Shown here in pieces: positions 441-37,699 of a DNA stretch of 42,342 nt. The notes beneath the pieces are model-generated. The model did not search any database. It had not been told where the DNA came from and worked only from the letters and a program-made list of their open reading frames with translations. Made by a program: the position numbers and the translations under genes. Each line of letters starts with the position of its first letter. Within the stretch, counting starts at the first letter, position 1. This DNA comes from Patescibacteria group bacterium (lineage in GTDB: Bacteria; Patescibacteriota; UBA1384; 2-12-FULL-50-11; DASWYB01). The stretch covers positions 1 to 42,342 of the forward strand of contig JBGPML010000001.1 in assembly GCA_041486955.1 (NCBI GenBank). Direction: 5' to 3'.

Positions 441-477
441 TTCCGAAATTTAATTCGGAAACAGAAATCTCTTGTAA
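441..477 (+). other. 5' arm of 23S rRNA processing stem
   Basis: The segment ...GGAAACAGAAATCTCTTGTAA is complementary to 3699-3722 (TTACAAGAGATTTTCTGTTTCC) with one bulge. This is the typical RNase III-type stem bracketing a 23S. Confidence 0.7.
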
Positions 478-694
478 ATTAAGAGTATGTGGTGGATGCC
501 TTGGCACATATTGCCGAAGAAGGACGTCGCAGCCTGCGATAAGCCTCGGGGAGCTGGCAAGCAAGCTTTGATCCGAGGATTTCCGAATAGGGAAACCTAG
601 TCCAGCGAAATGCTGGATTGCTCTACGTTAATCGTAGTAGCGGGCACCGGCTGAACTGAAACATCTTAGTAAGCCGAGGAAAAGAAAATAGTAA

Positions 695-727
<33 letters not shown>

Positions 728-971
728 AAGCCCAAACCTGCACCCGCAAGGGAGCAGGGGTTGTAGGGTACACTTGTCTTTAATGACAGTTGATTGTGGC
801 GTGTTAGCAGAACGAGCCTGGAAAGGCCGACCAGAGTGGGTGATAGTCCCGTATGCGAAAACACAACACACATCGGTGTATACCTGAGTACCACGAAACA
901 CGTGCAATTTCGTGGGAATCCGCGGTGATCATGCCGCAAGGCTAAATACAATATGTGACCGATAGTGAACG

Positions 972-1002
<31 letters not shown>

Positions 1003-1054
1003 GGAACGGGGAGTGAAATAGTACCTGAAACCGCATACTTACAAGGAGTCGGAG

Positions 1055-1354
1055 CCCAGCACCCTGTGTGCTATACTTGCGAATATGTTTTACGTATATA
1101 TTCTCAAGGGCTCGTCTAATCCGTTGTTCTATATTGGTTTTACCACCAATTTGAATCAGCGATTGGAGCAACATAATAATCATAGCAACCCTTCAACAAT
1201 AAAAAGTGAAAATTGGCAATTAGTTTATTTAGAAGGCTATCAATACGAAAATGTTGCTCGTAATCGAGAGCGAATGCTCAAGCATTATGGAAAGGCTTGG
1301 CAAGCAATTAAGAAACGGATTAGCGAGGTAGAAAATAGTATTTAGGGTGCTGGG
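1055..1354 (+). other. intervening sequence / insertion capping 23S helix 25
   Basis: CCCAGCACCC (1055-1064) and GGGTGCTGGG (1345-1354) form a perfect 10-bp stem around 280 nt. Flanks GGAGC... and ...TGACGGCGTGCCTTTTG match the E. coli helix-25 neighbourhood. Confidence 0.7.
1085..1345 (+). CDS. small stand-alone GIY-YIG (URI-domain) nuclease encoded inside the 23S insert
   Basis: 86 aa. FYVYILKGSSNPLFYIGFTTNLNQRLEQHN fits the GIY-(~10 aa)-YIG plus R/E/H core of the short GIY-YIG family (COG2827-like). No SD. The stop codon overlaps the closing stem. Confidence 0.75.
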   Translation: MFYVYILKGSSNPLFYIGFTTNLNQRLEQHNNHSNPSTIKSENWQLVYLEGYQYENVARNRERMLKHYGKAWQAIKKRISEVENSI

Positions 1355-1854
1355 TGACGGCGTGCCTTTTGAAGAATGAGCCAACGAGTTAGCTAGGCGT
1401 GGCAAGCTTAAGGATTTTTGTCCGGAGGCGGAGCGAAAGCGAGTCCTAACAGGGCGATTAAGTCGCGTCTACTAGACCCGAAACCGAGTGATCTACCCAT
1501 GGGCAGGGCGAAGCGCAGGTAAAACTGCGTGGAGGCCCGAACCTACTGATGTTGCAAAATCAGGGGATGACCTGTGGATAGCGGAGAAATTCTAATCGAA
1601 CTCGGAAATAGCTGGTTCTCCTCGAAATATATATAGGTATAGCCTCATGTTAGCGTCCGGGGGTAGAGCTCTGAATGCTTGTATTGGGAGCAATCTCGAT
1701 TGAGCAATCAAACTACGAATACCGGTAACGCGTTGCATGGGAGTCAGACTGTGGGGGCTAAGCTCCATGGTCGAAAGGGAAACAGCCCAGACCGTCAGAT
1801 AAGGTCCCTAAATTCTAGCTAAGTGGAAAAGGAAGTGATCGTGCATAGACAACT

Positions 1855-1890
<36 letters not shown>

Positions 1891-3059
1891 TGCGTAACAG
1901 CTCACTAGTCAATTGCAAGGTCGCGCCGAAAATTTAACGGGGCTCAAGCTAGGTACCGAAGCTACGGACCCCGCACCCTCATGGGTGCTGGGTGGTAGAG
2001 GAGCGTTCTGTGTTGGCTGAAGCCGTACTGTGAGGTATGGTGGACGACACAGAAGTGAGAATGTTGGCATGAGTAACGATAAGTGGGGTGAGAAACCCCA
2101 CCACCGCAAGTCCAAGGTTTCCTCCGCAACGGTAATCGGCGGGGGGTTAGTCGGTCCTAAGGCGCAAGTCGATGGACAGCAGGTTAATATTCCTGCACAA
2201 CGGTGCGACTACCCGTAAGTGACGCATTTCAAAGTTTTACAGCACCTATGGCTATGTGTTGTAAGGTGGAGAGGTGACAGGAAAAGCTTACGAGAGCCTA
2301 TCACAGAGACCAACTTGGTTTATGATAGCGAGTAAATTTTGAGCGAAAACAGCGAACGAGTGAGGAAGCATAGTATCTTCTATGGTGACGAACTCTGAGT
2401 AGTTTGCAGCCAAAATTTACCGCTGATCGTATCAAGGATGGTTTGTGTGATAGGCTCACAACTACGCATTGTTTCCGTACCGCAAACCAACTCAGGTGGA
2501 CGAGGCGAGAAGCCTCAGGTGTTCGAGATAACCTTCGTTAAGGAACTCGGCAAAAAAACGGGCGTACCTTAGGTATATGCCCTGACCACGTAAGTGGTCC
2601 GCAGCAAACGATTTTCAGGCGACTGTTTACCAAAAACTTAGGTCTCTGCTAATCTCTAATGAGATGTATAGGGGCTGATGCCTGCCCAGTGCTCGCAAGT
2701 TACGGAGAGAGTTGACTTTCGATTTTTAATCGGAGGAGGACTTGAACTTAAGCTCGAGTGAACGGCAGCGGTAACTATAACCGTTCTATGGTAGCGAAAT
2801 TCCTTGTCAGGTAAGTTCTGACCCGCACGAATGGCATAACGATCTGAAAACTGTCTCAACGAAGGACTCGGTGAAATTACAATACCGGTAAAGATGCCGG
2901 TTACCCGCAACAAGACGAAAAGACCCCGTGGAGCTTTACTACAGCTTGTCATTGGGTTTGAATTTAACATGTGTAGCGTACGAGGGAGCTTCGGCGCCAA
3001 TGAAACACCTCGCTTGGTAAATTTAAACTCTTATCTGGATTCCGGAGACAGTGGCTGGT

Positions 3060-3105
<46 letters not shown>

Positions 3106-3243
3106 TTCAAAGGTACACTAGATACGGACGGAAATCGTATCGATAGTGCAAACGCATAAGTGTGCTTGACTGTCAGGCTTACAAGCCGAGCAGGTACGAA
3201 AGTAGGAGTTAGTGAACCGTGTCCGAACGAATGAAAGTCGGAC

Positions 3244-3285
<42 letters not shown>

Positions 3286-3309
3286 GCGCCCAATAGACCA
3301 CTTAGACGG

Positions 3310-3349
<40 letters not shown>

Positions 3350-3384
3350 AGTGAAGAAGCTCCCAAGGGTTTGGCTGTTCGCCA

Positions 3385-3419
<35 letters not shown>

Positions 3420-3698
3420 CGAGACAGTTCGGTCTTCATCTGTTGTGGGCGTTGAAGCTTGAGAGGGTCTGTCCCTAGTATGAGAAGACCGGGATGGACG
3501 AACCTCTGGTGTGCCAGTTGTACTGCCAAGTGCATTGCTGGGTAGCTATGTTCGGTTGGGATAACCGCTGAAAGCATATAAGCGGGAAGCCCGCCTCAAG
3601 ATTAGGCTTCGTTATGAGGGTCCTGGAAGACCACCAGGTTGATAGGCACTAGGTGTACGTGTAGCAATACATTTAGCCGCGGTGTACTAATAACCCCA

Positions 3699-3735
3699 TT
3701 ACAAGAGATTTTCTGTTTCCGATTAAGTTCCGGAA
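3699..3735 (+). other. 3' arm of 23S rRNA processing stem
   Basis: Complementary to 441-477 (see the 5' arm feature). Confidence 0.7.
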
Positions 3736-4105: not shown

Positions 4106-4297
4106 ATGACACCGTGGGTTCCAGTAATTCTGCTCGTCTTCGTGATCGCTTTCCTAGTCTTTACGCTTATCAAAAATATGAGGGCGACAACAGGAGAAGA
4201 AACCGAACAGTTCACGGTCGTAATTCTCTGCTTCGTGGGAATTGCCGCATGCGGCTTCGCTATACGGTATTTCGCCACCCAACTGCTTTCCCGCTGA
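4106..4297 (+). CDS. 2-TM miniprotein (63 aa) in the 23S-5S spacer
   Basis: SD GAAAGGGAGGAAA about 6 nt before the ATG. Two hydrophobic helices (WVPVILLVFVIAFLVFTLI, VVILCFVGIAACGFAI). A small hairpin CCCGCT/AGCGGG lies at the stop. Confidence 0.55.
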   Translation: MTPWVPVILLVFVIAFLVFTLIKNMRATTGEETEQFTVVILCFVGIAACGFAIRYFATQLLSR

Positions 4298-4332
4298 TGT
4301 TTAGCGGGCCCTACTTAGAGGAATTAAGATGT

Positions 4333-4397
4333 GTCATCGCGAGCGGAAGCATGGCGAGCTTAACCAGATTGCTTCGTCGATTACTCCTCGCAATGAC
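4333..4397 (+). other. nested two-helix RNA structure 20 nt upstream of 5S
   Basis: GTCATCGCGAG (4333-4343) pairs with CTCGCAATGAC (4387-4397) with one mismatch. An inner helix GAAGCA (4346-4351) / TGCTTC (4370-4375) sits inside it. Confidence 0.45.
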
Positions 4398-4416
4398 AGA
4401 CTATATAGAAGACACC

Positions 4417-4536
4417 GTGTTGGTGCTTAGAGCGGTGGGGGTACACCCCTTCCCATTCCGAACAGGACCGTTAAGCCCACCAGCGTCGATGATACTTGAG
4501 GCGCAAGCCTCTGGGAAAGTAGACCAGCGCCAACAC
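4417..4536 (+). rRNA. rrf: 5S ribosomal RNA
   Basis: 120 nt. GTGTTGGTG...CGCCAACAC forms the terminal helix. Conserved CCCATTCCGAACAGGACCGTTAAGCC and GGGAAAGTAGACC blocks are present. Confidence 0.9.
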
Positions 4537-4620
4537 AGTGTCTTTTATTTTGCCAAAATATATCCTAGCATGAATGAGTCGTCCACATCCGAACAGTTTC
4601 GCGTGAGAAGGGGGGGAAGT

Positions 4621-5064
4621 ATGTGGTCAGTCACTATCGCCAACTTTGTCTTGGGCATTATTGGTATCATGTTTGCTCGGGGACTCCAGCGAACGTGGCA
4701 AAATGCCTATCCAATGATTGTGGGTAAGAAATCTCTCGTCCGTGTTGGTCAGGCAATTGCCGTGGCGGTCGGAATCAATTCGTTGGTCGTGATTGAAGAG
4801 GCTCTTTATATTATTTTCAAGGGGCCAAGTGTGGTATTTTCTCTATGGCTCATTCCTATTACCACTATAACGGCTTCCCTCGGCTTATTCAGCGTCAGTT
4901 ATCTAAGTTACTGTCGTGTAAAAAACGATCTTCCGTTCGATTACCCGAGATGGTCAATGTCATACTTTGGTGAAGAGCTGACAATGAAACTATTTTTGAG
5001 TTTCGGAGTTATTGCTCTTTTATCCTGTCTTGTAGGATATATCTGGATCTTCTGGCCCGCATAA
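4621..5064 (+). CDS. hypothetical 4-TM membrane protein (147 aa)
   Basis: C-terminal part of track ORF 4114-5064. ATG 4621 is preceded by GAAGGGGGGAAG. An alternative ATG is at 4570. The N-terminal part of the track ORF runs through the 5S gene and is rejected. Followed by a good terminator. Confidence 0.6.
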   Translation: MWSVTIANFVLGIIGIMFARGLQRTWQNAYPMIVGKKSLVRVGQAIAVAVGINSLVVIEEALYIIFKGPSVVFSLWLIPITTITASLGLFSVSYLSYCRVKNDLPFDYPRWSMSYFGEELTMKLFLSFGVIALLSCLVGYIWIFWPA

Positions 5065-5301: not shown

Positions 5302-6012
5302 ATGAAGCAGAAGAAGAGAAGGGTATTGCTGAAATTGTCTGGTGAAGCACTACTCGGCGAACGAGAGTATGGTATAGATCCGAAAATGGCCGATCGCCTG
5401 GCGAAGGAATTAAAACATGTTTCGGAAGTTCATGCCGAGTTGGCGATTGTCGTTGGTGGAGGAAATATCTTTCGAGGTTATTCAGCCAGTATAAATGGTA
5501 TGGATCGTGCGACGGGCGATTATATGGGAATGATAGCTACCGTTATGAATGCTCTTGCGCTTCAAGATGCGCTAGAAAAAGAAGGTGTTGAAACACGAGT
5601 CATGTCGGCTATCAATATCCCCCAAGTTTGTGAACCGTATATCCGTCGTCGAGCCATCCGCCATTTAGAAAAAGGGCGAATTGTTATTTTTGCGGCTGGT
5701 ACTGGTGACCCTTACTTTACGACCGACACGGCAGCTGCGTTGCGAGCCTGCGAGATTCACGCCGAAGCCTTATTGAAAGCGACGAAAGTTGACGGAATCT
5801 ATGATGAAGATCCAAAAACCAATCCTCAGGCCGTTCGATTTGAAACGATTACCTTCCAGGAAGTCCTTGAACGTAATCTTAAGATCATGGATGCTTCGGC
5901 ATTAGCCCTCTGTCGTGATAATAATCTTCCCATCATTGTTTTTAATCTATTAGAGCCAGGCACTATTAAGCAGGTGATCACCGGCGAGAATGTGGGCACA
6001 ACTGTTAGGTAG
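5302..6012 (+). CDS. pyrH: UMP kinase
   Basis: 236 aa. [38 protein letters not shown] and [20 protein letters not shown] are typical PyrH blocks. SD is GGAGG. Confidence 0.95.
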
Positions 6013-6015
6013 TAG

Positions 6016-6044
6016 GTCATTTCATGAATGACTGTCATTTTGAC
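6016..6044. repeat. GTCATT/AATGAC hairpin repeat right after the pyrH stop
   Basis: GTCATT (6016-6021) / AATGAC (6027-6032), followed by TGTCATTTTGAC. Same core as the repeats at 12.2, 19.4, 25.0 and 26.2 kb. Confidence 0.45.
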
Positions 6045-6112
6045 TAGACTGCCAAGATTTGTCATGCTATCTATCAAGCTTTGACTTATCATCACACAGG
6101 AAAGGGGCTGCG

Positions 6113-6292
6113 ATGATTTATCTCAGCATGATCATTTGCTTTGCCGGCTGGATCCTTCTGTATTTTGATTTTCCACTCTCGAAATCGAGAAGAAGGACTC
6201 TCGTAACGATATGTGCAATCGGACTCGTTCTGATCGGCATCTACTGGGGCAACCGAGCCTATGATTGGTATCAGTGGCACTTGCTTGAATGA
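6113..6292 (+). CDS. 2-TM miniprotein (59 aa)
   Basis: Internal ATG of track ORF 6059-6292, preceded by CAGGAAAGGGG. MIYLSMIICFAGWILLYF...LVTICAIGLVLIGIYW. Confidence 0.5.
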   Translation: MIYLSMIICFAGWILLYFDFPLSKSRRRTLVTICAIGLVLIGIYWGNRAYDWYQWHLLE

Positions 6293-6304
6293 GAGGAAAA
6301 AGCC

Positions 6305-6475
6305 GTGGCTATCACGATCATTTGCGGCTGTGTTGGGATGGCGGTTGTGGCGAAAACCCTGAATGTGAACAAAGAGTTCTTCAAGAGAGATCGGTCGGAA
6401 ATCGCTTCGGATTGCGCGTTGATTCTCGTCATCGTGATCTATGTCCTATTTTGCTTCTATGCTGCGCAAACGTAA
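6305..6475 (+). CDS. 2-TM miniprotein (56 aa, GTG start)
   Basis: Below the track length cutoff. GAGGAAAAAGCC precedes the GTG. Translation is VAITIICGCVGMAVVAKTLNVNKEFFKRDRSEIASDCALILVIVIYVLFCFYAAQT. A strong terminator overlaps the stop. Confidence 0.45.
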   Translation: MAITIICGCVGMAVVAKTLNVNKEFFKRDRSEIASDCALILVIVIYVLFCFYAAQT

Positions 6476-6495
6476 TGTGTTTGGGCAGCTTTTTT
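6461..6495 (+). terminator. intrinsic terminator
   Basis: GCTGCGCAAAC (6461-6471) / GTTTGGGCAGC (6479-6489), 11 bp with one mismatch, 7-nt loop, T6 at 6490-6495. Confidence 0.75.
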
Positions 6496-6496
6496 A

Positions 6497-6525
6497 TTGA
6501 AAAATATACCTATAGTTAGTAAACT
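6497..6525 (+). promoter_or_regulatory. promoter candidate (TTGAAA-17-TAAACT)
   Basis: TTGAAA at 6497-6502, 17-nt spacer, TAAACT at 6520-6525. The -10 hexamer is the same as in the promoter at 30-35. Confidence 0.5.
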
Positions 6526-6575
6526 AGCATCGTCTCAACATCTCACCGTGTGGCTCGGGAAAGCAGGGGAAAGTC

Positions 6576-6764
6576 GTGAGAAAAGATACCGCTTTCAACA
6601 TCGGCATTGGATTAATTCTGATCGTCGTCGTGGTAGTCTGCGTCTTAGTAATACCCGATATAGAGGAAGACGCAGAAACAGACAAAAGAAATCGCGATGA
6701 GACGATCCGCCACCACCGATCTCCAGTAAGAAGCCTTGCGGTGAAGCAAAATGGTAACAGATAG
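6576..6764 (+). CDS. 1-TM miniprotein with charged tail (62 aa, GTG start)
   Basis: AGGGGAAAG lies upstream of the GTG. FNIGIGLILIVVVVVCVLVI is the helix, followed by an acidic/basic tail. Confidence 0.45.
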   Translation: MRKDTAFNIGIGLILIVVVVVCVLVIPDIEEDAETDKRNRDETIRHHRSPVRSLAVKQNGNR

Positions 6765-6915
6765 CATCCCCTGGCTTTGGCTGGTCGTCGTTCTGGCTTG
6801 CATAGTCTGTATCTTTAAAAAGAGGCTGGAACTGCTGCCCGGCACTGGCTTATTAGGCGTAATCGCCGCGGCGTTTTTCTTTCTCTTCATCGCTTCTCTG
6901 GGGTTTGTGGACTAG
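6751..6915 (+). CDS. 2-TM miniprotein (54 aa)
   Basis: Below the track cutoff. ATG 6751 overlaps the previous ORF by 14 nt. Translation is MVTDSIPWLWLVVVLACIVCIFKKRLELLPGTGLLGVIAAAFFFLFIASLGFVD. A hairpin follows. Confidence 0.4.
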   Translation: MVTDSIPWLWLVVVLACIVCIFKKRLELLPGTGLLGVIAAAFFFLFIASLGFVD

Positions 6916-6930
6916 AGCAAACTCCCAACC

Positions 6931-6963
6931 AAAGCCGTCGGTCATGAGTTGATCGACGGCTTT
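6931..6963 (+). terminator. terminator-like hairpin
   Basis: AAAGCCGTCG (6931-6940) / CGACGGCTTT (6954-6963), perfect 10 bp, 13-nt loop. Confidence 0.55.
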
Positions 6964-6989
6964 CCATACGAGCAATTGCTCTGTAATAT
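6961..6989 (+). promoter_or_regulatory. weak promoter candidate (TTTCCA-17-TAATAT)
   Basis: TTTCCA at 6961-6966, TAATAT at 6984-6989. Confidence 0.3.
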
Positions 6990-7029
6990 TAATAGAGAAC
7001 CTATCATACTATTAAATTGGAGCAGTAAT

Positions 7030-7179
7030 ATGACAATTTTGTCTGTCCCAATGGGATTTCCTTCGGTCATAAATCATGAAAAATTGATCAACGTTCCGCC
7101 GGCTGGCGGATTGGCTACGTTTCCTCATTTGTTAATGAGTTTCAACCAAAATTGTGAACAAATTCCTTTCCAAAATTAA
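7030..7179 (+). CDS. upstream small ORF (49 aa), copy A of a conserved SD+peptide element
   Basis: GGAG lies 7 nt before ATG 7030. The N-terminus MTILSVPMGFPSVINHE is paralogous to the small ORF at 37559-37624 (minus strand). It ends 18 nt before the SD-less gene at 7198. Coding status is uncertain. Confidence 0.4.
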   Translation: MTILSVPMGFPSVINHEKLINVPPAGGLATFPHLLMSFNQNCEQIPFQN

Positions 7180-7197
7180 TAGTATGATAAGTTCTGT

Positions 7198-8184
7198 ATG
7201 TCCTTAACTATTCCTAAGTGGATCCGGCCATCTATCCAAGCAATTGGTAGTGTGGTTCTTTTTATTCTCTTTATCACCTTTTTTTGGCGTGAACGTAACG
7301 AGCTATCTCATTTGCGGCAAATTGTGACAGGAGCCAATCTTTCATTTCTCTCTCTAGGGATTTTTTTAAGTCTCTTAACCATCTTTATCCAAGGGCTATT
7401 CTATCAGTCAACGCTAGCTATGCTTCATAAGGAAATTCCGTTTCGAGTCGCCCTCAGTACCTATTTAAAACGCTTTTTCTTAGGATCATTTATTCCTGCT
7501 GGCGCAACCGTTTCTCAATTTACATTTAGTGATGAGGCCGAAGAACATAAGGTTAACGAGCTCGAAAGCCATTTAGCCGCTGCTTTTTTTATTTTTATTG
7601 GCGCAATCGTCTATATATTGATTCTCTATCCCACCGCCCTCTATTCATATTTGACTGGACGATTAAGCGGCGCAGAAAGCCTCAGCAGTTTGATCTTAAT
7701 CATAATTACATTGCTGTTATTTATCGATTTCTTCATTCTCTTCGAACAACGAGGCGTGATTTTCACGCTCGCATCAAAAATACGCCCGAATGTACCGCGT
7801 TTTATCGCCTCATGGCGAAATCGCGCATTCAATCAAGAGGCTATGGCCCGGGCATTTCTTTATGCTGGTTTATATCAAGCCACCAGCATTGTGATCGTTC
7901 TGGTCACATTTCAGGCACTGAACTTGCCTGGCGATATTTATGTGGCACTGGTCTGTTATGTTACCACTGTACTACTCTTAACAATTTCGCCGGTGTTTCA
8001 AGGGATTGGGTTGGTAGAATTTTCGCTCGTCTATACCTTGCAGCGTTTCGGTTTTGAAAAGGATCAAGCGGTAGCTATTACCATTCTTTATCGTCTGTTT
8101 CAGTTATGGATTCCACTTCTGATTGGATTTATTGTCTATCTGCAAAGCAAAATTAGCGATTCATTGCAGAAGCCAAAAAACTGA
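7198..8184 (+). CDS. MprF-flippase-like / lysylphosphatidylglycerol synthase TM-region family membrane protein
   Basis: 328 aa, about 8 TM helices. Colinear with residues 1 to ~325 of the next gene, for example LKRFFLGSFIPAGATVSQFTF versus LKRFFVGSFIPAGFTVSQFTF and LYRLFQLWIPLLIGF versus LFRLFQLWIPFFIGF. Confidence 0.85.
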   Translation: MSLTIPKWIRPSIQAIGSVVLFILFITFFWRERNELSHLRQIVTGANLSFLSLGIFLSLLTIFIQGLFYQSTLAMLHKEIPFRVALSTYLKRFFLGSFIPAGATVSQFTFSDEAEEHKVNELESHLAAAFFIFIGAIVYILILYPTALYSYLTGRLSGAESLSSLILIIITLLLFIDFFILFEQRGVIFTLASKIRPNVPRFIASWRNRAFNQEAMARAFLYAGLYQATSIVIVLVTFQALNLPGDIYVALVCYVTTVLLLTISPVFQGIGLVEFSLVYTLQRFGFEKDQAVAITILYRLFQLWIPLLIGFIVYLQSKISDSLQKPKN

Positions 8185-8259: not shown

Positions 8260-10941
8260 ATGACATTCAATCAACCCAAAATGTATAAAGCCTTTTGGCA
8301 ATCGCTCATTGGAATTGTCTTAGTTGCTCTTTTCATTGCTTTTTTATGGCAGCAAAGACGAGAACTGTACAATTTAAAACTGATAATCTTACAGGCAAAT
8401 TATACCTATATGTTTTTAGGGGTAGCGATAACCGGGGCATACTTTCTGGCTCAAGGTTTGTTTTATCAGAGCTGTTTGGCATTGCTGCACCAGCACGTCC
8501 CATTAACCGATGCAGTTAAAATCTATTTAAAGCGTTTCTTTGTCGGATCGTTTATTCCGGCCGGCTTTACTGTTTCTCAATTTACATTTCAATCTGACTT
8601 AAAAAAATATTCTATTAACGAAACAGAGAGTAATTTTGCGTCAATACTCTATCTTATTCTAGGTGCAATAACCTACGTTGCTATATTAATTCCTACCATT
8701 GTTTACCTCATTTATGGCAGTCATCTTACCTCACTCGAGCAGTACGGTAGCTTGGGTTTTATTGTCGTTATTTTGTTTGTCAGTATAGAGTTTTATTCTT
8801 TTATTCGCGAAAAGGGTATTGTCTATCGCTTGCTTCGACGTCTGATCCCGAATCTGTCATCTTTTATGGCGTCGTTACGAAAGACGTCATTCAACCGAAA
8901 TGTATTGATTCGAGCCTTTGCCTATAGTTTTCTTGTTGATGTATTAAGTATTGTAACGCTTTTAATAACGTTTAAAGCCTTAAATATCGCTCCCTCGCTT
9001 CTGATCGCCACGATTGGCTATGTCCTCACCATATTACTTCTGAGCATTTCACCAATTTTTGAAGGAATTGGGGTGGTAGAAGTCTCTTTGGTTTATGTCC
9101 TCATTCAATTTAATGTACCAAGAGATGCCGCCATTGCAGCAACTCTTCTTTTCCGATTGTTTCAGCTGTGGATCCCGTTTTTCATCGGATTTTTCTTGGC
9201 TTTACGAAATAAAATTGAAACTTCATTTCAATATCTACCAGTCGTATTAGTATTCTTACTCGGCGTAATCAATATCGTCTCGGCAGTAAGCCCACCGTTA
9301 ACCCACCGGCTTGATTTTTTGGAAGAGTTTTTCTCGCTGGATTTCTTAGTCTACTCGCGAATATTTACGCTCGTGTTGGGCTTTCTTCTTCTCTATCTGG
9401 TTTATAATCTTATTCATCGCTCCTACCGTGCTTGGCAAGCGACCGTTATATTTACTCTCTTTTCGATTATTGGCCATCTTGTTAAAGGGATTGATTATGA
9501 AGAGGCTGTATTCGGAGTAATTGTTTTAATTTCACTTTACATCTATAGAAACCACTATCGAATTAAAAATAGTTTGAGTCGGGTCAGAAAGGGCATAGTC
9601 ATCCTATGGATGGGGTTTGCCTTCGCCATATTTTATGGACTAATCGGATTTTATTTTCTTGATAAGAAACAATTTGGCGAGACGTTTACCCTCGGCCAGG
9701 CATTCCATCATCTTATTCGTTTATATTTTGAGTTTGGTGATATTAGTTTACATCCCCACACAATGTTTGCGCGTCTTTTTATCGGTTCAATTTATGGTGT
9801 TGGAATATTTTCACTCCTCTATGGAATTATATCGATTTTTCAACCAACCTTACGTGCATATCAAACTATTCCAGAAGAATATGATAAAGCCCAGCGTCTG
9901 ATTCAATCGTACGGCCATAACAATCTCGATTATTTTAAATTATATTGGGACAAGTCGTTCTTCTTTTCATCCACCAACGACGCATTTATTGCTTATAAGG
10001 ACATTAACGGTTATGCTCTCGTCCTCGGCGATCCTGTCGGCAAAAATGAAACAGCCATTAAACGAATAATTGAAGAATTTGCCGCATTCTCTGAATCGGC
10101 TGGGCTGCGAGTGGCGTTTCAGCAGGTGAGTAGTGAATATCTTAAGTTATATAAGCAGTTAGAATGGAATTATTTCAAAATAGGAGAAGAAGCCGAAGTG
10201 CTACTCGGGAATTTCTCACTGGAAAAGCCCGAGTTTAAAGAATTTCGGTCTATTATCCGTCGATTTGAAAGGGAAGGATACCGTTATACGCTTCATACCC
10301 CTCCGGTTAGTGCTGGTCTGATTCAAAAACTCCACCAAGTTTCTGACGAGTGGTTATCGTTACCGTTTCGAACTGAGCGGATTTTTACACAAAGTATGTT
10401 TGAATCAAGCGCCTTGATGCAGACAAAGATAGCAACGGTTGAAGATCACGAAGGCCAAATTTTAGCTTTTATCAGCCTCCTTCCTGATTATGATCATGGA
10501 AAGGTCGCATTGGATATGATGCGTCGAAAAACCAAGGTTCCGAATGGAGTTATGGAATTTTTAGTTGTTCAAACGATTTGGTCTCTCCTGCAATCAGGGT
10601 ATACATCCTTCAGTTTAGGATTAGCGCCTTTGTCGGGTGTCGGAGATCAGGAAAACGCAGGGATCCCCGAAAAATCGCTTAAATTTTTCTATGATCATTT
10701 TAATAAAGTGTTCAGCTATAAAGGGCTGCGGCAATTTAAAGCTAAATTCGCTCCGGAGTGGAGTCCCCGTTATTTGGTGTATCGAAGTCAAATAGAATTA
10801 CCCACATTGGCTGTTGCCTCCGTTAAAGCTGGGCAGGTCGGGGGCTTTACAGCTTTTTTTGAAAGTGCCCTCAAGCATCGACTTCAAACGAAACATGCCA
10901 CTATGATGGAACGAATCCAAAACAAAGAAAATACCTCATGA
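8260..10941 (+). CDS. mprF: bifunctional aminoacyl-phosphatidylglycerol synthase/flippase (MprF-like)
   Basis: 893 aa. The N-terminal part is polytopic membrane region. The C-terminal soluble domain (DYFKLYWDKSFFFS..., AFIAYKDINGYALVLGDPVG, KGLRQFKAKFAPEW) matches the MprF synthase (DUF2156-type) domain. Confidence 0.88.
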   Translation: MTFNQPKMYKAFWQSLIGIVLVALFIAFLWQQRRELYNLKLIILQANYTYMFLGVAITGAYFLAQGLFYQSCLALLHQHVPLTDAVKIYLKRFFVGSFIPAGFTVSQFTFQSDLKKYSINETESNFASILYLILGAITYVAILIPTIVYLIYGSHLTSLEQYGSLGFIVVILFVSIEFYSFIREKGIVYRLLRRLIPNLSSFMASLRKTSFNRNVLIRAFAYSFLVDVLSIVTLLITFKALNIAPSLLIATIGYVLTILLLSISPIFEGIGVVEVSLVYVLIQFNVPRDAAIAATLLFRLFQLWIPFFIGFFLALRNKIETSFQYLPVVLVFLLGVINIVSAVSPPLTHRLDFLEEFFSLDFLVYSRIFTLVLGFLLLYLVYNLIHRSYRAWQATVIFTLFSIIGHLVKGIDYEEAVFGVIVLISLYIYRNHYRIKNSLSRVRKGIVILWMGFAFAIFYGLIGFYFLDKKQFGETFTLGQAFHHLIRLYFEFGDISLHPHTMFARLFIGSIYGVGIFSLLYGIISIFQPTLRAYQTIPEEYDKAQRLIQSYGHNNLDYFKLYWDKSFFFSSTNDAFIAYKDINGYALVLGDPVGKNETAIKRIIEEFAAFSESAGLRVAFQQVSSEYLKLYKQLEWNYFKIGEEAEVLLGNFSLEKPEFKEFRSIIRRFEREGYRYTLHTPPVSAGLIQKLHQVSDEWLSLPFRTERIFTQSMFESSALMQTKIATVEDHEGQILAFISLLPDYDHGKVALDMMRRKTKVPNGVMEFLVVQTIWSLLQSGYTSFSLGLAPLSGVGDQENAGIPEKSLKFFYDHFNKVFSYKGLRQFKAKFAPEWSPRYLVYRSQIELPTLAVASVKAGQVGGFTAFFESALKHRLQTKHATMMERIQNKENTS

Positions 10942-12200: not shown

Positions 12201-12204
12201 ATAG

Positions 12205-12320
12205 AAATGACGAATTTAAAATGGCAAATGAAAAAACGAATTAATAATGAATCATTCGAATGGTTTCGTCATTCGTGCTTCGACATTGATTTGTCATTTG
12301 GGTTTAGGTATTCGTCATTT
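12205..12320. repeat. inverted/direct repeat cluster with core AATGACGAA / TTCGTCATT
   Basis: AAATGACGAAT at 12205-12215, TTTCGTCATT at 12264-12273, ATTCGTCATTT at 12310-12320. A degenerate copy TTGTCATTTG and a central palindrome CATTCGAATG are also present. Confidence 0.6.
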
Positions 12321-12358
12321 GATTTGACAAATTTAAATGAGCTAACGCAACAGAAGTC

Positions 12359-19566: not shown

Positions 19567-19683
19567 TGGAAAAACGCCGGGGTTAGATCTTCCCGCAAAA
19601 AGAGTTATCTTTTGGGATCAGCTAACTTTGGAGGGGCACATTCCTGCTACTGGCCATGGGTTAGGGAGGAGAGAATCACGAAT

Positions 19684-20556
19684 ATGAAACACAGTCCTGT
19701 CCTCCTTAACGAAGTTATTACGGCATTAGAACCGCAGTCGGGTTCGCGGTATATCGATGCCACCCTCGGAGATGGAGGGCACGCCAATGCACTTTTAGAA
19801 GCAAGTCAGCCTGACGGAAAGGTCTTAGGCCTCGATCAAGACCCACAGCAAATTATGGTGGCCAAGGAGAACTTAGCCAAATGGGGTAAACGGATAACGA
19901 TCGTTGAATCGCGATTTTCCAGCTTGAAAGAACGAGCAGTAAAAGCCGGATTCAGACACGTTGATGGTATTCTCCTCGACTTGGGCATATCCTCAAGGCA
20001 GCTCAGTGTCCTCTCGTATGGTCTGAGTCTCGATGATAATTCCAATCTGGATATGCGACTTACGCCAACATTGCCACACTCAGCCGCTGATTTACTTAAC
20101 CACGGGAACGAAACCGAAATTGCCGACATCTTATATGAATTTGGTGATCGTCATAATAGCCGCACCTTAGCTCGAAAAATCGTCTCATTTCGCAGGAAAG
20201 CGACATTTAAAGTAGCTTATGATCTGAAGCAAGCGATCGATGTGTGGAATCCCCATGCTTTGGCGCCGATATTTCAGGCCTTAAGGATTTGGGTTAATAC
20301 TGAATTTGATGAATTACACACTGTTCTACCGCAAGCCATTGATCTCTTAACGCCAGGGGGAACTCTCGCTATCATTACCTTCCATTCAGGGGAGGATCGG
20401 ATTGTGAAGCGGTTTCTACGAGACCGTCGTAAGCTACTCAGAGTGTCACACGTGATTACTCCGAGCTATGATGAAGTACGAAAAAATCCTCGAGCCCGTA
20501 GCGCCAAGTTGCGCTTAGCTCAAAAATTAGGAGGGGAGCAGCATGATTCCAGTTAG
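19684..20556 (+). CDS. rsmH: 16S rRNA (cytosine1402-N4)-methyltransferase RsmH
   Basis: HSPVLLNEVITAL, DATLGDGGH, LLDLGISSRQL and FHSGEDRIVK motifs. ATG 19684 is preceded by GGGAGGAG. The track ORF starts at an upstream TTG (19612). Confidence 0.93.
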   Translation: MKHSPVLLNEVITALEPQSGSRYIDATLGDGGHANALLEASQPDGKVLGLDQDPQQIMVAKENLAKWGKRITIVESRFSSLKERAVKAGFRHVDGILLDLGISSRQLSVLSYGLSLDDNSNLDMRLTPTLPHSAADLLNHGNETEIADILYEFGDRHNSRTLARKIVSFRRKATFKVAYDLKQAIDVWNPHALAPIFQALRIWVNTEFDELHTVLPQAIDLLTPGGTLAIITFHSGEDRIVKRFLRDRRKLLRVSHVITPSYDEVRKNPRARSAKLRLAQKLGGEQHDSS

Positions 20557-25000: not shown

Positions 25001-25005
25001 TAAAA

Positions 25006-25080
25006 AATGACGAAATCCAAATACCAAAATCTGAATCCAACGAGCCGATTTTCGTCATTTGGCATTTTGTATTCGTCATT
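25006..25080. repeat. AATGACGAA / TTCGTCATT inverted-repeat element between mraY and ftsW
   Basis: AATGACGAAAT at 25006-25016, GATTTTCGTCATTT at 25047-25060 (about a 13-bp stem with one bulge), and a third copy ATTCGTCATT at 25071-25080. Confidence 0.6.
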
Positions 25081-25088
25081 ATAACCCC

Positions 25089-26207: not shown

Positions 26208-26211
26208 TAAC

Positions 26212-26252
26212 AATGACGAAACCCGATTATCGAATGACAAAATTCGTCATTT
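26212..26252. repeat. AATGACGAA / TTCGTCATT inverted-repeat element between ftsW and murG
   Basis: AATGACGAAA at 26212-26221, GAATGACAAA at 26232-26241, AATTCGTCATTT at 26241-26252. Confidence 0.6.
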
Positions 26253-26302
26253 AGCATTTAGATTTCGGAATTATCTTTGCTGTGCTTTATAATGAACATA
26301 AT

Positions 26303-34717: not shown

Positions 34718-37552
34718 CTATGGAGGAGTAACAGTATACTGTTTACTTGTTATCGTTGTGTTGCCAGTTTTATCCACAGGAATGAAAGTAATATAATTTA
34801 TGACGTTATTGGATAATCCATTGAGGGTTGTGGTCTGATTGTCTCCCGGGTGTGCGCTGACTGTCGCAATTTTAGCACCCTGAATACCGGGGGATTGGGA
34901 GGCGTATATGGCGACAGTGTTCAAATCACTATTCAAAGGATTGGTCCATGAAGCCTTAGCTTTCCCGCTTCCGTTTGGCGACAAACTAACGTTGGACACC
35001 TCGTTTGGCGGAGTGGAATCAGCTCCAACAAGAATCGTAATTTGAGTTTTCGCGCTGTGCCCATTCGTTGCTCTTATATAGGCTGAAATAACGTGAGGAC
35101 CAAGCGAAAGGTCGGCAGTGTCAAATGTGCTCGTGTACGGAGAGGAGGTATCGGTCGAATAGGGCTTATCATCGATAGCAAATTCAACTGAGCCAGTGCT
35201 GCCAGGAGGCATGGTCACCTCGGCTGAAACAGTAAAGATGCCTGAAACGGTTGAGTCACCTTCGGGACTGCTGATCAATATTTTCGGATCACTAAAGGTC
35301 AGATCGCATTTATCAGTTGGCGGATCGCTTGAGAGGCCGGCATTTCTTGCATAAGCCTGAACCGGACCTTCATAGGCTGGATTGTTCGGCTGTTCAGAAT
35401 GAACTTTCGTGTAGTTTCGTTCCTCAACCTCGTCGGTTGGAGTATCATCAGTCGCTAATTTACCATTACTTTTACAAACTTTAACGCGGACATGAACGTC
35501 ATCAAAACCATCAGGTCCTTGCCAAGGAGCAAATAAATCTTGAATAAGCTGTCCTGATGCCGGTGTTGGATTTTTGCCTGACAAGAAATCAACGGTTTTA
35601 CTCGTTACACTGTCTGGTCGCGTGAATCCCTCATTATCTTTCTTAGCCAGATATTTGGTCATAAAATCGTCCCAAATTGGGGCAGAAACAGTCGACCCCC
35701 CTCCATGATCCATTTCACTGCCGTCATTATTACCAGCCCATACTCCCGCTACGATTGATGGGGTATAACCTATCGTCCAGGCATCCTTAAAACCATTGGT
35801 GGTGCCTGTTTTAACGGCAACTGTTTTATTCGGTACCGTGAGGACGCCGAGAAGATTTCCAAAGGTCAGTTTCTTCGCGTTGATGTCGGATAGAATATCG
35901 CTAATCTCATAGGCAATCTCGGGTTTAATGACTTGTTTTGGTTCCGGCTTCCATTCGAAGAGAGTTTTCCCTCGACTATCCTGAATCTTGAGAATTGAAG
36001 TCAGTGGATTACGATCGCCATTATTGGCAAGAACGCTATACGCGGCGGTTAAGTCAACAAGTTTAACTTCTCCACCTCCAAGGGCCAGAGACAAACCGGC
36101 ATCTTTACGATCGTCTAATGTTGTAATCCCCATATTATGGGCATTTTTAATAAAGTTATCGATTCCTTCAATCTGTAAGGCTTTAACGGCCGGAATGTTA
36201 TATGAGTTGCCGAGAGCGTTACGAATCGTGAGCGGCCCGTGAAAACGTCCGTCAAAGTTATTCGGTTTATAACCATTAAAATCAGTTTGTACATCCCAGA
36301 CCACCGATCCAGGGTTCCATTTTCCTTCAAATAGTGTGGCATAGACAATTGGCTTGCCGGCTGATCCCGGTTGTCGTAACCCAGTGGCGACATTAAAGTT
36401 ACCTTCATGTTCTCGGTCAAAGTAATCAACTGATCCAACCATGGCTAACAGTTGTCCCGTTTTCGGATCAATCGCCACTAAACCGGCGTTGGAAGCTTTG
36501 GCACGAGGTAGTACCTTCGCTCCAACATTTTTCACCGCATCATCAGCCAAAGATTGAGCATCAAGGTCGAGGGTAGTGGTAACTCGTAATCCACCACGTT
36601 GAACGAGTTCTTCGCCATATTTTGCGACTAATTGTTCACGGACATACATGACAAAATGCGGGGCGGGGAAGTTGTCGCGTTTCTGGGCAAAATCCTTCGC
36701 GGCTAATGGAGTCTCTTTCTTGGCTTGATTAGCCTGTTCTTGGGTAACTGCTCCCGTTTTTACCATGTCGTCAAGTACTAAGTTTTTGCGCGCAATCAAG
36801 AGATCCACATGGTTGCCGTATGGTGAGTATCGAGTAGGTGATTGGGGGAGAGCTGCCAGCGTCGCTGCTTCAGATAGGGTCAATGGATGTTCCTTATCTT
36901 TGACTGACTTACCGTAATAAGCCTGGCTGGCTGCCTCAATACCGTAAATATTCGAACCATAAGGAATTTCATTCAAGTAAAGGGTAAGAATGTCGTCCTT
37001 TGAGTAGATTGATTCAAGTTCAAGAGAAAGAATAACTTCCTTTATCTTACGGATGACTGAACGTTTCGGCGAAAGGAGAGCATTTTTTACGTATTGCTGA
37101 GTAATTGTCGATCCCCCTTGCACTCCCTTTCCTGTAAGAGGACGGAAAATTACACCCCGAATCAGTCCACGAAAATCAATGCCGTGATGAGAGTAAAAGT
37201 TTTTATCTTCAATTGCCACAGTGGCTTTTTTACTGATATCTGGGATTTCATCAGCTTTAACCAGAATCCGACGTTCATCACCCGAAATATCATAAATCTG
37301 TTTACCATTACGATCGTATAAAATAGTTGATTCACTGGCCGAACGGGTACGAAGCTCGCCAGGTCGAGGTAGATCTTTAAAGTACCAAGCAAATAAACCA
37401 ATGCCTAAAATTATCACTCCAGCTGTAAAAATAATCCCTATTTTCAGGATTGTACGCCAGGTGATTTTTCGGAGTCGTAATTTGGGTAATTGAGCTTTCC
37501 GAAAGCGAATCGGGAAAGATCGTCGTACCCGAGTAACAAAAGGTTTAAACAT
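34718..37552 (-). CDS. class A penicillin-binding protein (glycosyltransferase + transpeptidase) with C-terminal Ig/FN3-like extension
   Basis: 944 aa. GT51 motifs EDKNFYSHHGID, GGSTITQQ and RKIKE. Transpeptidase motifs SAGK (SxxK), SYN (SxN) and KTGT. About 210 extra C-terminal residues are beta-rich. Confidence 0.93.
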   Translation of the reverse strand: MFKPFVTRVRRSFPIRFRKAQLPKLRLRKITWRTILKIGIIFTAGVIILGIGLFAWYFKDLPRPGELRTRSASESTILYDRNGKQIYDISGDERRILVKADEIPDISKKATVAIEDKNFYSHHGIDFRGLIRGVIFRPLTGKGVQGGSTITQQYVKNALLSPKRSVIRKIKEVILSLELESIYSKDDILTLYLNEIPYGSNIYGIEAASQAYYGKSVKDKEHPLTLSEAATLAALPQSPTRYSPYGNHVDLLIARKNLVLDDMVKTGAVTQEQANQAKKETPLAAKDFAQKRDNFPAPHFVMYVREQLVAKYGEELVQRGGLRVTTTLDLDAQSLADDAVKNVGAKVLPRAKASNAGLVAIDPKTGQLLAMVGSVDYFDREHEGNFNVATGLRQPGSAGKPIVYATLFEGKWNPGSVVWDVQTDFNGYKPNNFDGRFHGPLTIRNALGNSYNIPAVKALQIEGIDNFIKNAHNMGITTLDDRKDAGLSLALGGGEVKLVDLTAAYSVLANNGDRNPLTSILKIQDSRGKTLFEWKPEPKQVIKPEIAYEISDILSDINAKKLTFGNLLGVLTVPNKTVAVKTGTTNGFKDAWTIGYTPSIVAGVWAGNNDGSEMDHGGGSTVSAPIWDDFMTKYLAKKDNEGFTRPDSVTSKTVDFLSGKNPTPASGQLIQDLFAPWQGPDGFDDVHVRVKVCKSNGKLATDDTPTDEVEERNYTKVHSEQPNNPAYEGPVQAYARNAGLSSDPPTDKCDLTFSDPKILISSPEGDSTVSGIFTVSAEVTMPPGSTGSVEFAIDDKPYSTDTSSPYTSTFDTADLSLGPHVISAYIRATNGHSAKTQITILVGADSTPPNEVSNVSLSPNGSGKAKASWTNPLNSDLNTVAIYASQSPGIQGAKIATVSAHPGDNQTTTLNGLSNNVINYITFIPVDKTGNTTITSKQYTVTPP

Positions 37553-37558
37553 AAGAAC

Positions 37559-37624
37559 CTACTTCAGAAATATTTCATGATTTGTGACTGAAAGGAATCC
37601 CATGGGGGCAGTCGAAATTGTCAA
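37559..37624 (-). CDS. upstream small ORF (21 aa, TTG start), copy B of the conserved SD+peptide element
   Basis: GGAG lies 7 nt before the TTG. The peptide is (M)TISTAPMGFLSVTNHEIFLK. The stop TAG is 6 nt before the PBP ATG. About 82 percent nt identity to 7014-7086. Coding status is uncertain. Confidence 0.35.
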   Translation of the reverse strand: MTISTAPMGFLSVTNHEIFLK

Positions 37625-37670
37625 ATTCCTACTCCAATTTATTTTTGAGGTAGGTTCATCCTCCCTATCT

Positions 37671-37699
37671 ATTTTACTCGTAGCTTTGCAAGTTATCAA
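37671..37699 (-). promoter_or_regulatory. promoter candidate for the small ORF + PBP transcript (TTGATA-17-TAAAAT)
   Basis: On the minus strand, TTGATA is at 37699-37694 and TAAAAT at 37676-37671, with a 17-nt spacer. Confidence 0.55.

Follow-up and report, generated by a model that had tools for sequence, protein, structure and literature searches.

Two copies of a short sequence element, copy A on the forward strand and copy B on the reverse strand, lie directly before two cell-envelope genes in 42,342 nt of a contig from an uncultivated Patescibacteria group bacterium (JBGPML010000001.1, assembly GCA_041486955.1); we call this whole stretch the window. Copy A precedes the gene for an LPG_synthase_TM-only protein, a paralogue of the flippase domain of MprF, and copy B precedes the gene for a class A penicillin-binding protein (PBP); these two are referred to here as the main genes. 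Each copy is closed by a helix, P1, between the 5' end of the leader and the bases immediately preceding the main AUG; P1 encloses a conserved core and a small open reading frame (the mini-ORF) preceded by a Shine–Dalgarno (SD) sequence. The element is real and is specific to one lineage, and it probably has an effect on translation. The reading that we prefer, to which we would give somewhat less than an even chance, is that of a lineage-specific hairpin-closed 5' leader in which translation of the mini-ORF unzips P1 and thereby couples translation of the main gene to its own.

The duplicated element and its boundaries

A first-pass annotation of this region had aligned positions 7014-7086 of the forward strand without gaps to 37568-37640 of the reverse strand, with roughly 60 of the 73 positions identical; the count is exactly 60/73. 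A repeat search widens the match to 89 nt at 80% identity (6997-7085 against 37569-37657), and each half-pattern of the core occurs at these two sites only in the window, with no match in 100 shuffles. Similarity is not significant upstream of GAACC (P = 0.43) or downstream of the main ATG (P = 0.37). The copies agree in orientation and in the place at which the 3' strand of P1 ends, 3 nt (copy A) or 2 nt (copy B) before the main ATG, and copy A amounts to copy B plus about 90 nt (7087-7176). The sequences thus support the two copies as homologous leaders, placed in equal orientation and register directly before two envelope genes, as had been proposed. The features of each copy, with the genes that follow, are given below.

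Copy A, forward strand

6931-6963, forward: terminator-like hairpin (AAAGCCGTCGGTCA / TGATCGACGGCTTT) with 14-nt arms, 93% complementary, and a 5-nt loop
6961-6989, forward: weak sigma-70-like promoter, TTTCCA-17-TAATAT, found by eye (8/12), ending 7 nt before copy A
6992-7199, forward: whole element, an imperfect palindrome or leader of about 208 nt
6997-7014, forward: P1 5' strand, GAACCTATCATACTATTA, 17/18 paired with 7177-7194
7014-7086, forward: conserved core, 60/73 with copy B, with GGAG at 7019-7022; the mini-ORF begins at 7030
7030-7179, forward: mini-ORF of 49 codons plus TAA, reported by gene callers as a 49-aa ORF
7087-7176, forward: insert specific to copy A and missing from copy B, which lengthens the stem and adds two hairpins
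7177-7194, forward: P1 3' strand, ...TAATAGTATGATAAGTTC, ending 3 nt before the main ATG
7198-8184, forward: main gene, LPG_synthase_TM-only protein, MprF flippase-domain paralogue (PF03706, 1.9e-22)
8260-10941, forward: full-length MprF, next after the LPG_synthase_TM-only gene

Copy B, reverse strand

37671-37699, reverse: sigma-70-like promoter, TTGATA-17-TAAAAT (10/12), ending 13 nt before copy B
37659-37665, reverse: GGGAGGA, a perfect SD-like heptamer directly 5' of P1, read from the sequence
37553-37657, reverse: whole element of about 105 nt, starting at GAACC and ending immediately before the PBP ATG
37640-37657, reverse: P1 5' strand, GAACCTACCTCAAAAATA, 16/18 paired; 18-nt arms, 89%
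37559-37624, reverse: mini-ORF with a TTG start, 21 codons plus TAG, with GGAG at 37632-37635
37555-37572, reverse: P1 3' strand, TATTTCTGAAGTAGGTTC, ending 2 nt before the main ATG
34718-37552, reverse: main gene, class A PBP (transglycosylase, transpeptidase and Big_7 by Pfam)

The terminator-like hairpin at 6931-6963 closes the upstream transcription unit, so that copy A would start a new transcript, with a predicted start at ~6996, one base before GAACC. The hexamers in front of copy A (8/12) fall below the cut-off of our promoter scan (9/12) and are therefore not listed by the scanner. For copy B the start is predicted at ~37664. As promoter-like hexamers stand just upstream of each copy and a terminator-like hairpin stands before copy A, we take the unit to be a whole 5' leader, running from the predicted transcription start to the ATG of the gene. 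The N-terminus of the PBP aligns with its orthologues from the first Met, and the PBP ATG is therefore ancestral rather than supplied by the element.

The insert of copy A holds a GC hairpin (7095-7110) and an AU hairpin (7124-7139), both of which had been pointed out in the first-pass annotation and are present. The 16-nt GC hairpin, TCCGCCGGCTGGCGGA, recurs exactly at 19674-19689 of another stretch of the same genome (L014), ~43 kb away and ~10 nt beyond a 73-aa gene, counted from its stop codon (BLAST E ~0.01). Neither of its copies is followed by a U-tract; it may belong to a family of small hairpins of the repetitive extragenic palindromic (REP-like) or terminator-like kind.

The closing helix P1

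P1 is formed in both copies by the 5' end of the leader (GAACCUA...) and the bases just before the main AUG (...UAGGUUC). With pair numbering that begins at the G in GAACC and the C in GTTC, the register is equal in the two copies, and 17/18 pairs are formed in copy A and 16/18 in copy B. At five positions both partners have changed between the copies and are still paired (U-A/C-G, A-U/U-A, U-A/C-G, U-A/A-U and U-A/A-U). This result was matched by 0 of 100,000 trials in which the copy A 3' arm was randomly mutated or random sequence was used (P < 1e-5). RNAalifold recovers P1 from the trimmed alignment, and the consensus energy of the whole element is better than that of column shuffles (P = 0.007).

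The enclosed core behaves differently: its consensus energy of -6.2 compares with -5.1 +/- 2.3 for column shuffles (P = 0.29), covariation is confined to P1 and a conserved multi-helix core was not found. The first-pass annotation had not included P1, although it had offered a structured RNA as an alternative to a small ORF. That alternative gains a compensated long-range helix, but its core carries no signal of structure. It had also noted GTTCT(G)TATGT at the start of both main genes; the motif is indeed common to both, but its GTTCT is the 3' strand of the helix, pairing with the 5' GAACC.

In copy A the pairing extends well beyond P1. Its inverted repeat (6992-7032 / 7159-7199; 41 nt, 78%) is the longest local one in the window, and the fold has a minimum free energy of -65.2 kcal/mol (z = -6.35). 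In this predicted fold a pyrimidine tract of the insert, CCTTTCC (7164-7170), pairs with the SD of the mini-ORF, and opening the start region of the main gene would cost 22.5 kcal/mol, compared with a mean of 9.6 +/- 3.7 kcal/mol for 26 ORFs.

The mini-ORF

Within the core, both copies have a GGAG exactly 7 nt in front of a start codon: GGAG-N7-ATG in copy A (7019-7032, ATG at 7030) and GGAG-N7-TTG in copy B (37635-37622, TTG at 37624). Between the end of the mini-ORF and the main ATG lie 18 nt in copy A (ATG at 7198) and 6 nt in copy B (ATG at 37552). These spacings are as first annotated. The two frames differ in length (49 versus 21 codons), yet both stop codons are found in or at the 3' strand of P1, that of copy A at its inner end and that of copy B inside it. 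The main genes themselves have no SD, as had been noted, but this does not set them apart, since most genes in the window have none; by eye, ~4-5 of the 26 window ORFs have a GGAG, GAGG or AGGA core at -5 to -15. With so few SD-bearing genes in the window, the GGAG before each mini-ORF becomes a little more notable.

The pattern of change between the copies is not that of a coding sequence. The 19 differences over 90 aligned bases (6997-7086) are spread over codon positions 1/2/3 as 5/8/6, with no third-position excess, and none of the other frames on either strand is coding-like by the same measure. Only 3 of the 11 differences inside the ORF are synonymous, the figure given at first pass, and that annotation had held that conservation blind to the reading frame would speak against its proposal; such blindness is what the codon positions display. 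A profile of both mini-ORF peptides matched nothing but the element's own 49-aa ORF in 5.8 billion proteins, and the same was true against 1.84 billion representatives with no word filter. The clusters of both called mini-ORFs are singletons (90% clusters), the peptides have no Pfam match, and public records list the 49-aa ORF as a hypothetical protein.

Of the shared leader-peptide or upstream-ORF control suggested at first pass, the geometry of an SD-preceded ORF fits coupling and stands. The conserved leader peptide does not: there is no coding signature (5/8/6), the searches returned no homologous peptide and the orthologous genes have no such leader (see below). The peptide as such is not conserved; should the ORF be in use, it is its translation and the position of its end that count.

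Occurrence in the genome and in relatives

The region is identical in two NCBI metagenome-assembled genomes, two JGI metagenomes and one Logan assembly, and both copies of the element are present in all of the near-identical assemblies. About 54 kb of this genome could be reached, namely the window and two further stretches (L001 and L014). A hidden Markov model of the two copies found nothing further in this ~54 kb or in ~90 kb from relatives, and 10 kb of added genome sequence held no further copy. An absence of additional copies and of orthologous conservation, which the first-pass annotation had said would tell against its proposal, is thus what was seen within the reach of these searches.

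The closest PBP orthologues have 60-71% protein identity. At three orthologue loci (66-71% identity) the tyrS-PBP spacers are 38-127 nt long and the element is absent; these relatives are too distant to tell insertion of the element from gain of a leader. By eye, -10-like boxes are found ~3-13 nt before the ATG of the relatives' PBP genes (L011 ~9963-10000, L012 ~9892-10000 and L013 ~9874-10000), which suggests that their PBP mRNAs are leaderless or have a very short leader. The -10 box of tyrS (GGTATAATC or a close variant, e.g. TATAAT) is kept across the divergent spacer in relatives. The element is also absent from two loci with LPG_synthase_TM homologues (<=41% identity), where the genes lie ~20-30 nt behind another gene.

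Rfam gave no relevant match, either for the whole window at the gathering threshold or for both copies at E<=10, where only noise was returned. Pattern scans were made of collections that do not contain this organism's genome. The pattern for the right half of the core gave five chance matches in genome contigs, in unrelated phyla; in metagenome contigs a wobble-tolerant pattern gave none and the left-half pattern gave 15, with no likeness beyond the pattern itself; and viral contigs gave one chance match, inside a phage gene. These scans needed exact patterns and say little about further copies in the organism itself.

A second family of intergenic repeats is present in the window: AATGACGAA and TTCGTCATT are present in inverted orientation in three spacers (12203-12321, 25003-25082 and 26209-26274), each time immediately behind a stop codon. 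These words could represent hairpins of the terminator kind or else a transcription-factor site.

Proposed mechanism and points against it

In the preferred reading, P1 would enclose a loop of conserved sequence carrying GGAG-N7-AUG/UUG and the mini-ORF, and when folded would put the SD-less start codon of the main gene at the foot of a duplex, with strong occlusion predicted for copy A and mild occlusion for copy B. Ribosomes loading on the mini-ORF would read on into the 3' strand of P1 and end translation 6 or 18 nt short of the main AUG. P1 would then melt, and the start site would pass to the terminating ribosome or to a new one (translational coupling). The act and the position of mini-ORF translation, and not the sequence of its peptide, would be decisive, and the cassette would have been kept owing to this effect on the start of the main gene. 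Its origin is probably a small palindromic (MITE-like; see below) insertion or a leader duplication.

The leaders of ermC, cat, secM-secA and mifM-yidC2 are alike in having a short SD-preceded ORF, a helix that masks the main start region and would be melted by a ribosome on the leader ORF, and a stop codon a few bases before the main start. In ermC-type leaders, however, the peptides are conserved as coding sequence and the helix usually masks a downstream SD, whereas here the peptide is without coding-type conservation or homologues, the masking helix uses the extreme 5' end of the mRNA and the main genes have no SD.

Several observations weigh against this reading. The SD and start codon of the copy A mini-ORF are buried inside the long stem, so that translation could take place only co-transcriptionally or after the stem has melted, and the 32 extra codons of copy A would stay open by chance in ~12% of cases (an estimate from base composition). 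The fold of copy B is no better than that of shuffles (z = 0.1), and its start region, at 11.4 kcal/mol to open, is no more occluded than that of an average gene. Most genes here have no SD, and the main genes have no obvious need for coupling. The inverted repeats of a palindromic mobile element would be expected to have compensated arms just as much. Finally, there are two copies only and no orthologues, a comparison that cannot separate translation from RNA function.

If P1 and the mini-ORF do gate the PBP gene and the MprF operon, they would offer a testable case of post-transcriptional envelope co-regulation in reduced genomes, and a palindromic insertion beside a start codon would be shown to be tolerated or put to use.

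The GGGAGGA heptamer of copy B suggests a further route to the PBP start. With P1 folded, it would lie ~4 nt plus one helix width from the PBP AUG, which itself is 2 nt 3' of the helix. Phage T4 genes 38 and 25 have comparable split ribosome-binding sites, in which a hairpin between the SD and the AUG loops out sequence and restores a functional spacing (PMC3014915). In contrast to those sites, the looped segment here is ~100 nt rather than ~15-20 nt, and copy A has no counterpart of the heptamer and thus no upstream SD. Because copy A lacks it and copy B's transcript is predicted to begin in or beside it, we treat this idea as a lead only.

Alternative explanations

The foremost alternative, possible though rather doubtful, is that the element is a non-autonomous palindromic repeat of the kind called MITEs (miniature inverted-repeat transposable elements), like Correia/NEMIS, ERIC or YPAL, with a long form of ~208 bp and a short form of ~105 bp, which landed in two 5' regions. 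The hairpin, the open frames and the outward promoter-like hexamers would then be generic, and any effects on neighbours (RNase III cleavage, mRNA stability or occlusion) incidental. The anatomy agrees with published descriptions: bacterial MITEs are 100-200 bp long and A+T-rich, with terminal inverted repeats and contiguous open frames, and their transcripts form a long stem by 5'-3' end pairing (PMC2229807; PMC2649163). This likeness holds for Correia/NEMIS of Neisseria and for ERIC and YPAL of enterobacteria, and Correia comes in two size classes, a long and a short form differing by an internal segment (PMC2229807; PMC2649163). Families of the Correia/ERIC type are found in 5' regions and co-transcribed there; they provide promoters, and RNase III cleaves them (PMC2229807; PMC2649163).

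The element has terminal inverted repeats (arms of 41 nt in copy A and 18 nt in copy B) and falls in the 100-200 bp size range. Across the conserved part, both strands have open frames, no frame has conservation of the coding type, and antisense promoter-like hexamers occupy an equal place in both copies. The insert of copy A adds a second repeated hairpin, the GC hairpin that is also found elsewhere, and relatives lack the element in their tyrS-PBP spacer, which is otherwise syntenic, as would be expected of an insertion. However, Correia/ERIC-type families have tens to hundreds of dispersed copies, TA target duplications and a variable placement with respect to genes, whereas here two copies only are seen in the ~54 kb of reachable genome, with no clear target duplication, one register and no sequence similarity to those families. 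TA follows the right end of both copies (T/A of TATG), but the left flank has TA in copy A only and GGAT in copy B; no matching direct repeat flanks either copy, and neither a consistent target-site duplication nor TA at each end is seen. Independent random insertions would rarely arrive in equal orientation 2-3 nt before an ancestral start codon (rough estimate <1e-3). Related sequence was not found in any of the collections, which lack the organism's genome and were scanned with exact patterns only. A MITE-like origin and present use as a leader are compatible. If the element is only a two-copy palindromic repeat, it is an annotation caveat for the 49-aa ORF and an instance of MITE-like DNA in a very small genome.

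It is unlikely that the element is instead a cis-regulatory leader RNA, in which a mostly single-stranded core binds a trans factor (a protein, a small RNA or the anti-SD) or a ligand, P1 is the switch helix that hides the start codon and the mini-ORF is incidental. P1 adjoins the start codon and shows compensatory change, as in translational OFF riboswitches, which likewise have a closing helix of this kind around a conserved core. The conservation is blind to frame, both genes behind the element act on the envelope, and purine (UUGGAG, AUGGGAUU) and pyrimidine (UUUCCUUC / UUCCUUUC) tracts of the core could pair with each other or with the SD or anti-SD. Set against this, OFF riboswitches have Rfam families, conserved internal helices and a phylogenetic distribution, none of which is found here: Rfam gave no match, even at E<=10, the consensus fold of the core is no better than column shuffles (P = 0.29) and the element has no phylogenetic spread. 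Furthermore, the copy A helix, with ~40-50 nt per arm and -65 kcal/mol, is far too long and too stable for ligand switching.

A broader proposal, which we regard as a long shot, is that of a class of leaders specific to Patescibacteria (the candidate phyla radiation; CPR) in which the mRNA 5' end clamps the start codon of SD-less envelope genes. The mini-ORF, by way of either its nascent chain or a factor that binds the conserved loop, would sense the status of the envelope or of translation, co-regulating the PBP gene and the MprF flippase/synthase operon. If true, an organism in which almost no regulation is known would have a small envelope regulon acting post-transcriptionally. To our knowledge, gene regulation in Patescibacteria (CPR) is almost unexplored.

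Least probable among the readings that we graded is a nascent-chain arrest peptide of the SecM/MifM/Erm type, in which MTI..PMGF.SV.NHE would stall the ribosome on an envelope signal. Between the copies 11/17 residues are identical and the changes are mostly conservative, the SD and a start codon are kept (ATG to TTG still gives a start) and the ORFs stop close to the main starts. On the other hand, the 5/8/6 distribution over codon positions and 3/11 synonymous differences are what unconstrained or RNA-level change would give, no homologous peptide occurs in 5.8e9 or 1.84e9 proteins, the clusters are singletons and the orthologous genes lack such a leader. We also know of no likeness between MTI..PMGF.SV.NHE and known arrest motifs.

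Three further candidates were rejected: a promoter inside the core (TTGACA with a downstream -10), as there is no acceptable -10; an integron attC site, as the arm ends misfit RYYYAAC / GTTRRRY and the syntenic genes are housekeeping genes; and an antisense type I toxin, as the ORFs, although hydrophobic and of 42-44 aa, have no SD or coding-type conservation. The element is of known kinds, namely hairpin leaders with upstream ORFs and MITE-like repeats, and is not catalogued.

Genomic context

Named homologues of the PBP are annotated as Patescibacteria or Berkelbacteria, and the PBP gene is divergent from tyrS. The LPG_synthase_TM-only gene (7198-8184) is paralogous to the N-terminal membrane-domain part of the adjacent full-length MprF, and a 67-nt stretch of DNA is 81% identical between the two (7461-7527 and 8523-8589); the pair looks like a tandem partial duplication.

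Upstream of copy A, ~1 kb (6012-7000) is without a confidently called gene, which is unusual in a compact CPR genome. Its ORFs are small and hydrophobic only (6059-6292 and 6751-6915), gene callers are inconsistent on them, and Rfam has no match in this stretch.

The left flank of the window holds a type IV secretion system (T4SS) pilin gene, and 23S and 5S rRNA genes are present. A 316-aa ORF at 4114-5064 (forward), which some assemblies annotate as a gene, runs across the 5S rRNA gene (4419-4535) and is unlikely to be genuine. The 23S rRNA (468-3710) is ~320 nt longer than the bacterial model, with an extra segment at ~1059-1354 flanked by a 20-nt inverted repeat (1055-1074 / 1335-1354). This segment holds an 86-aa ORF (1085-1345, forward), the counterpart of which in other assemblies has a GIY-YIG Pfam match, and looks like a homing-endonuclease-bearing insertion or intron; such rRNA insertions and introns are frequent in CPR.

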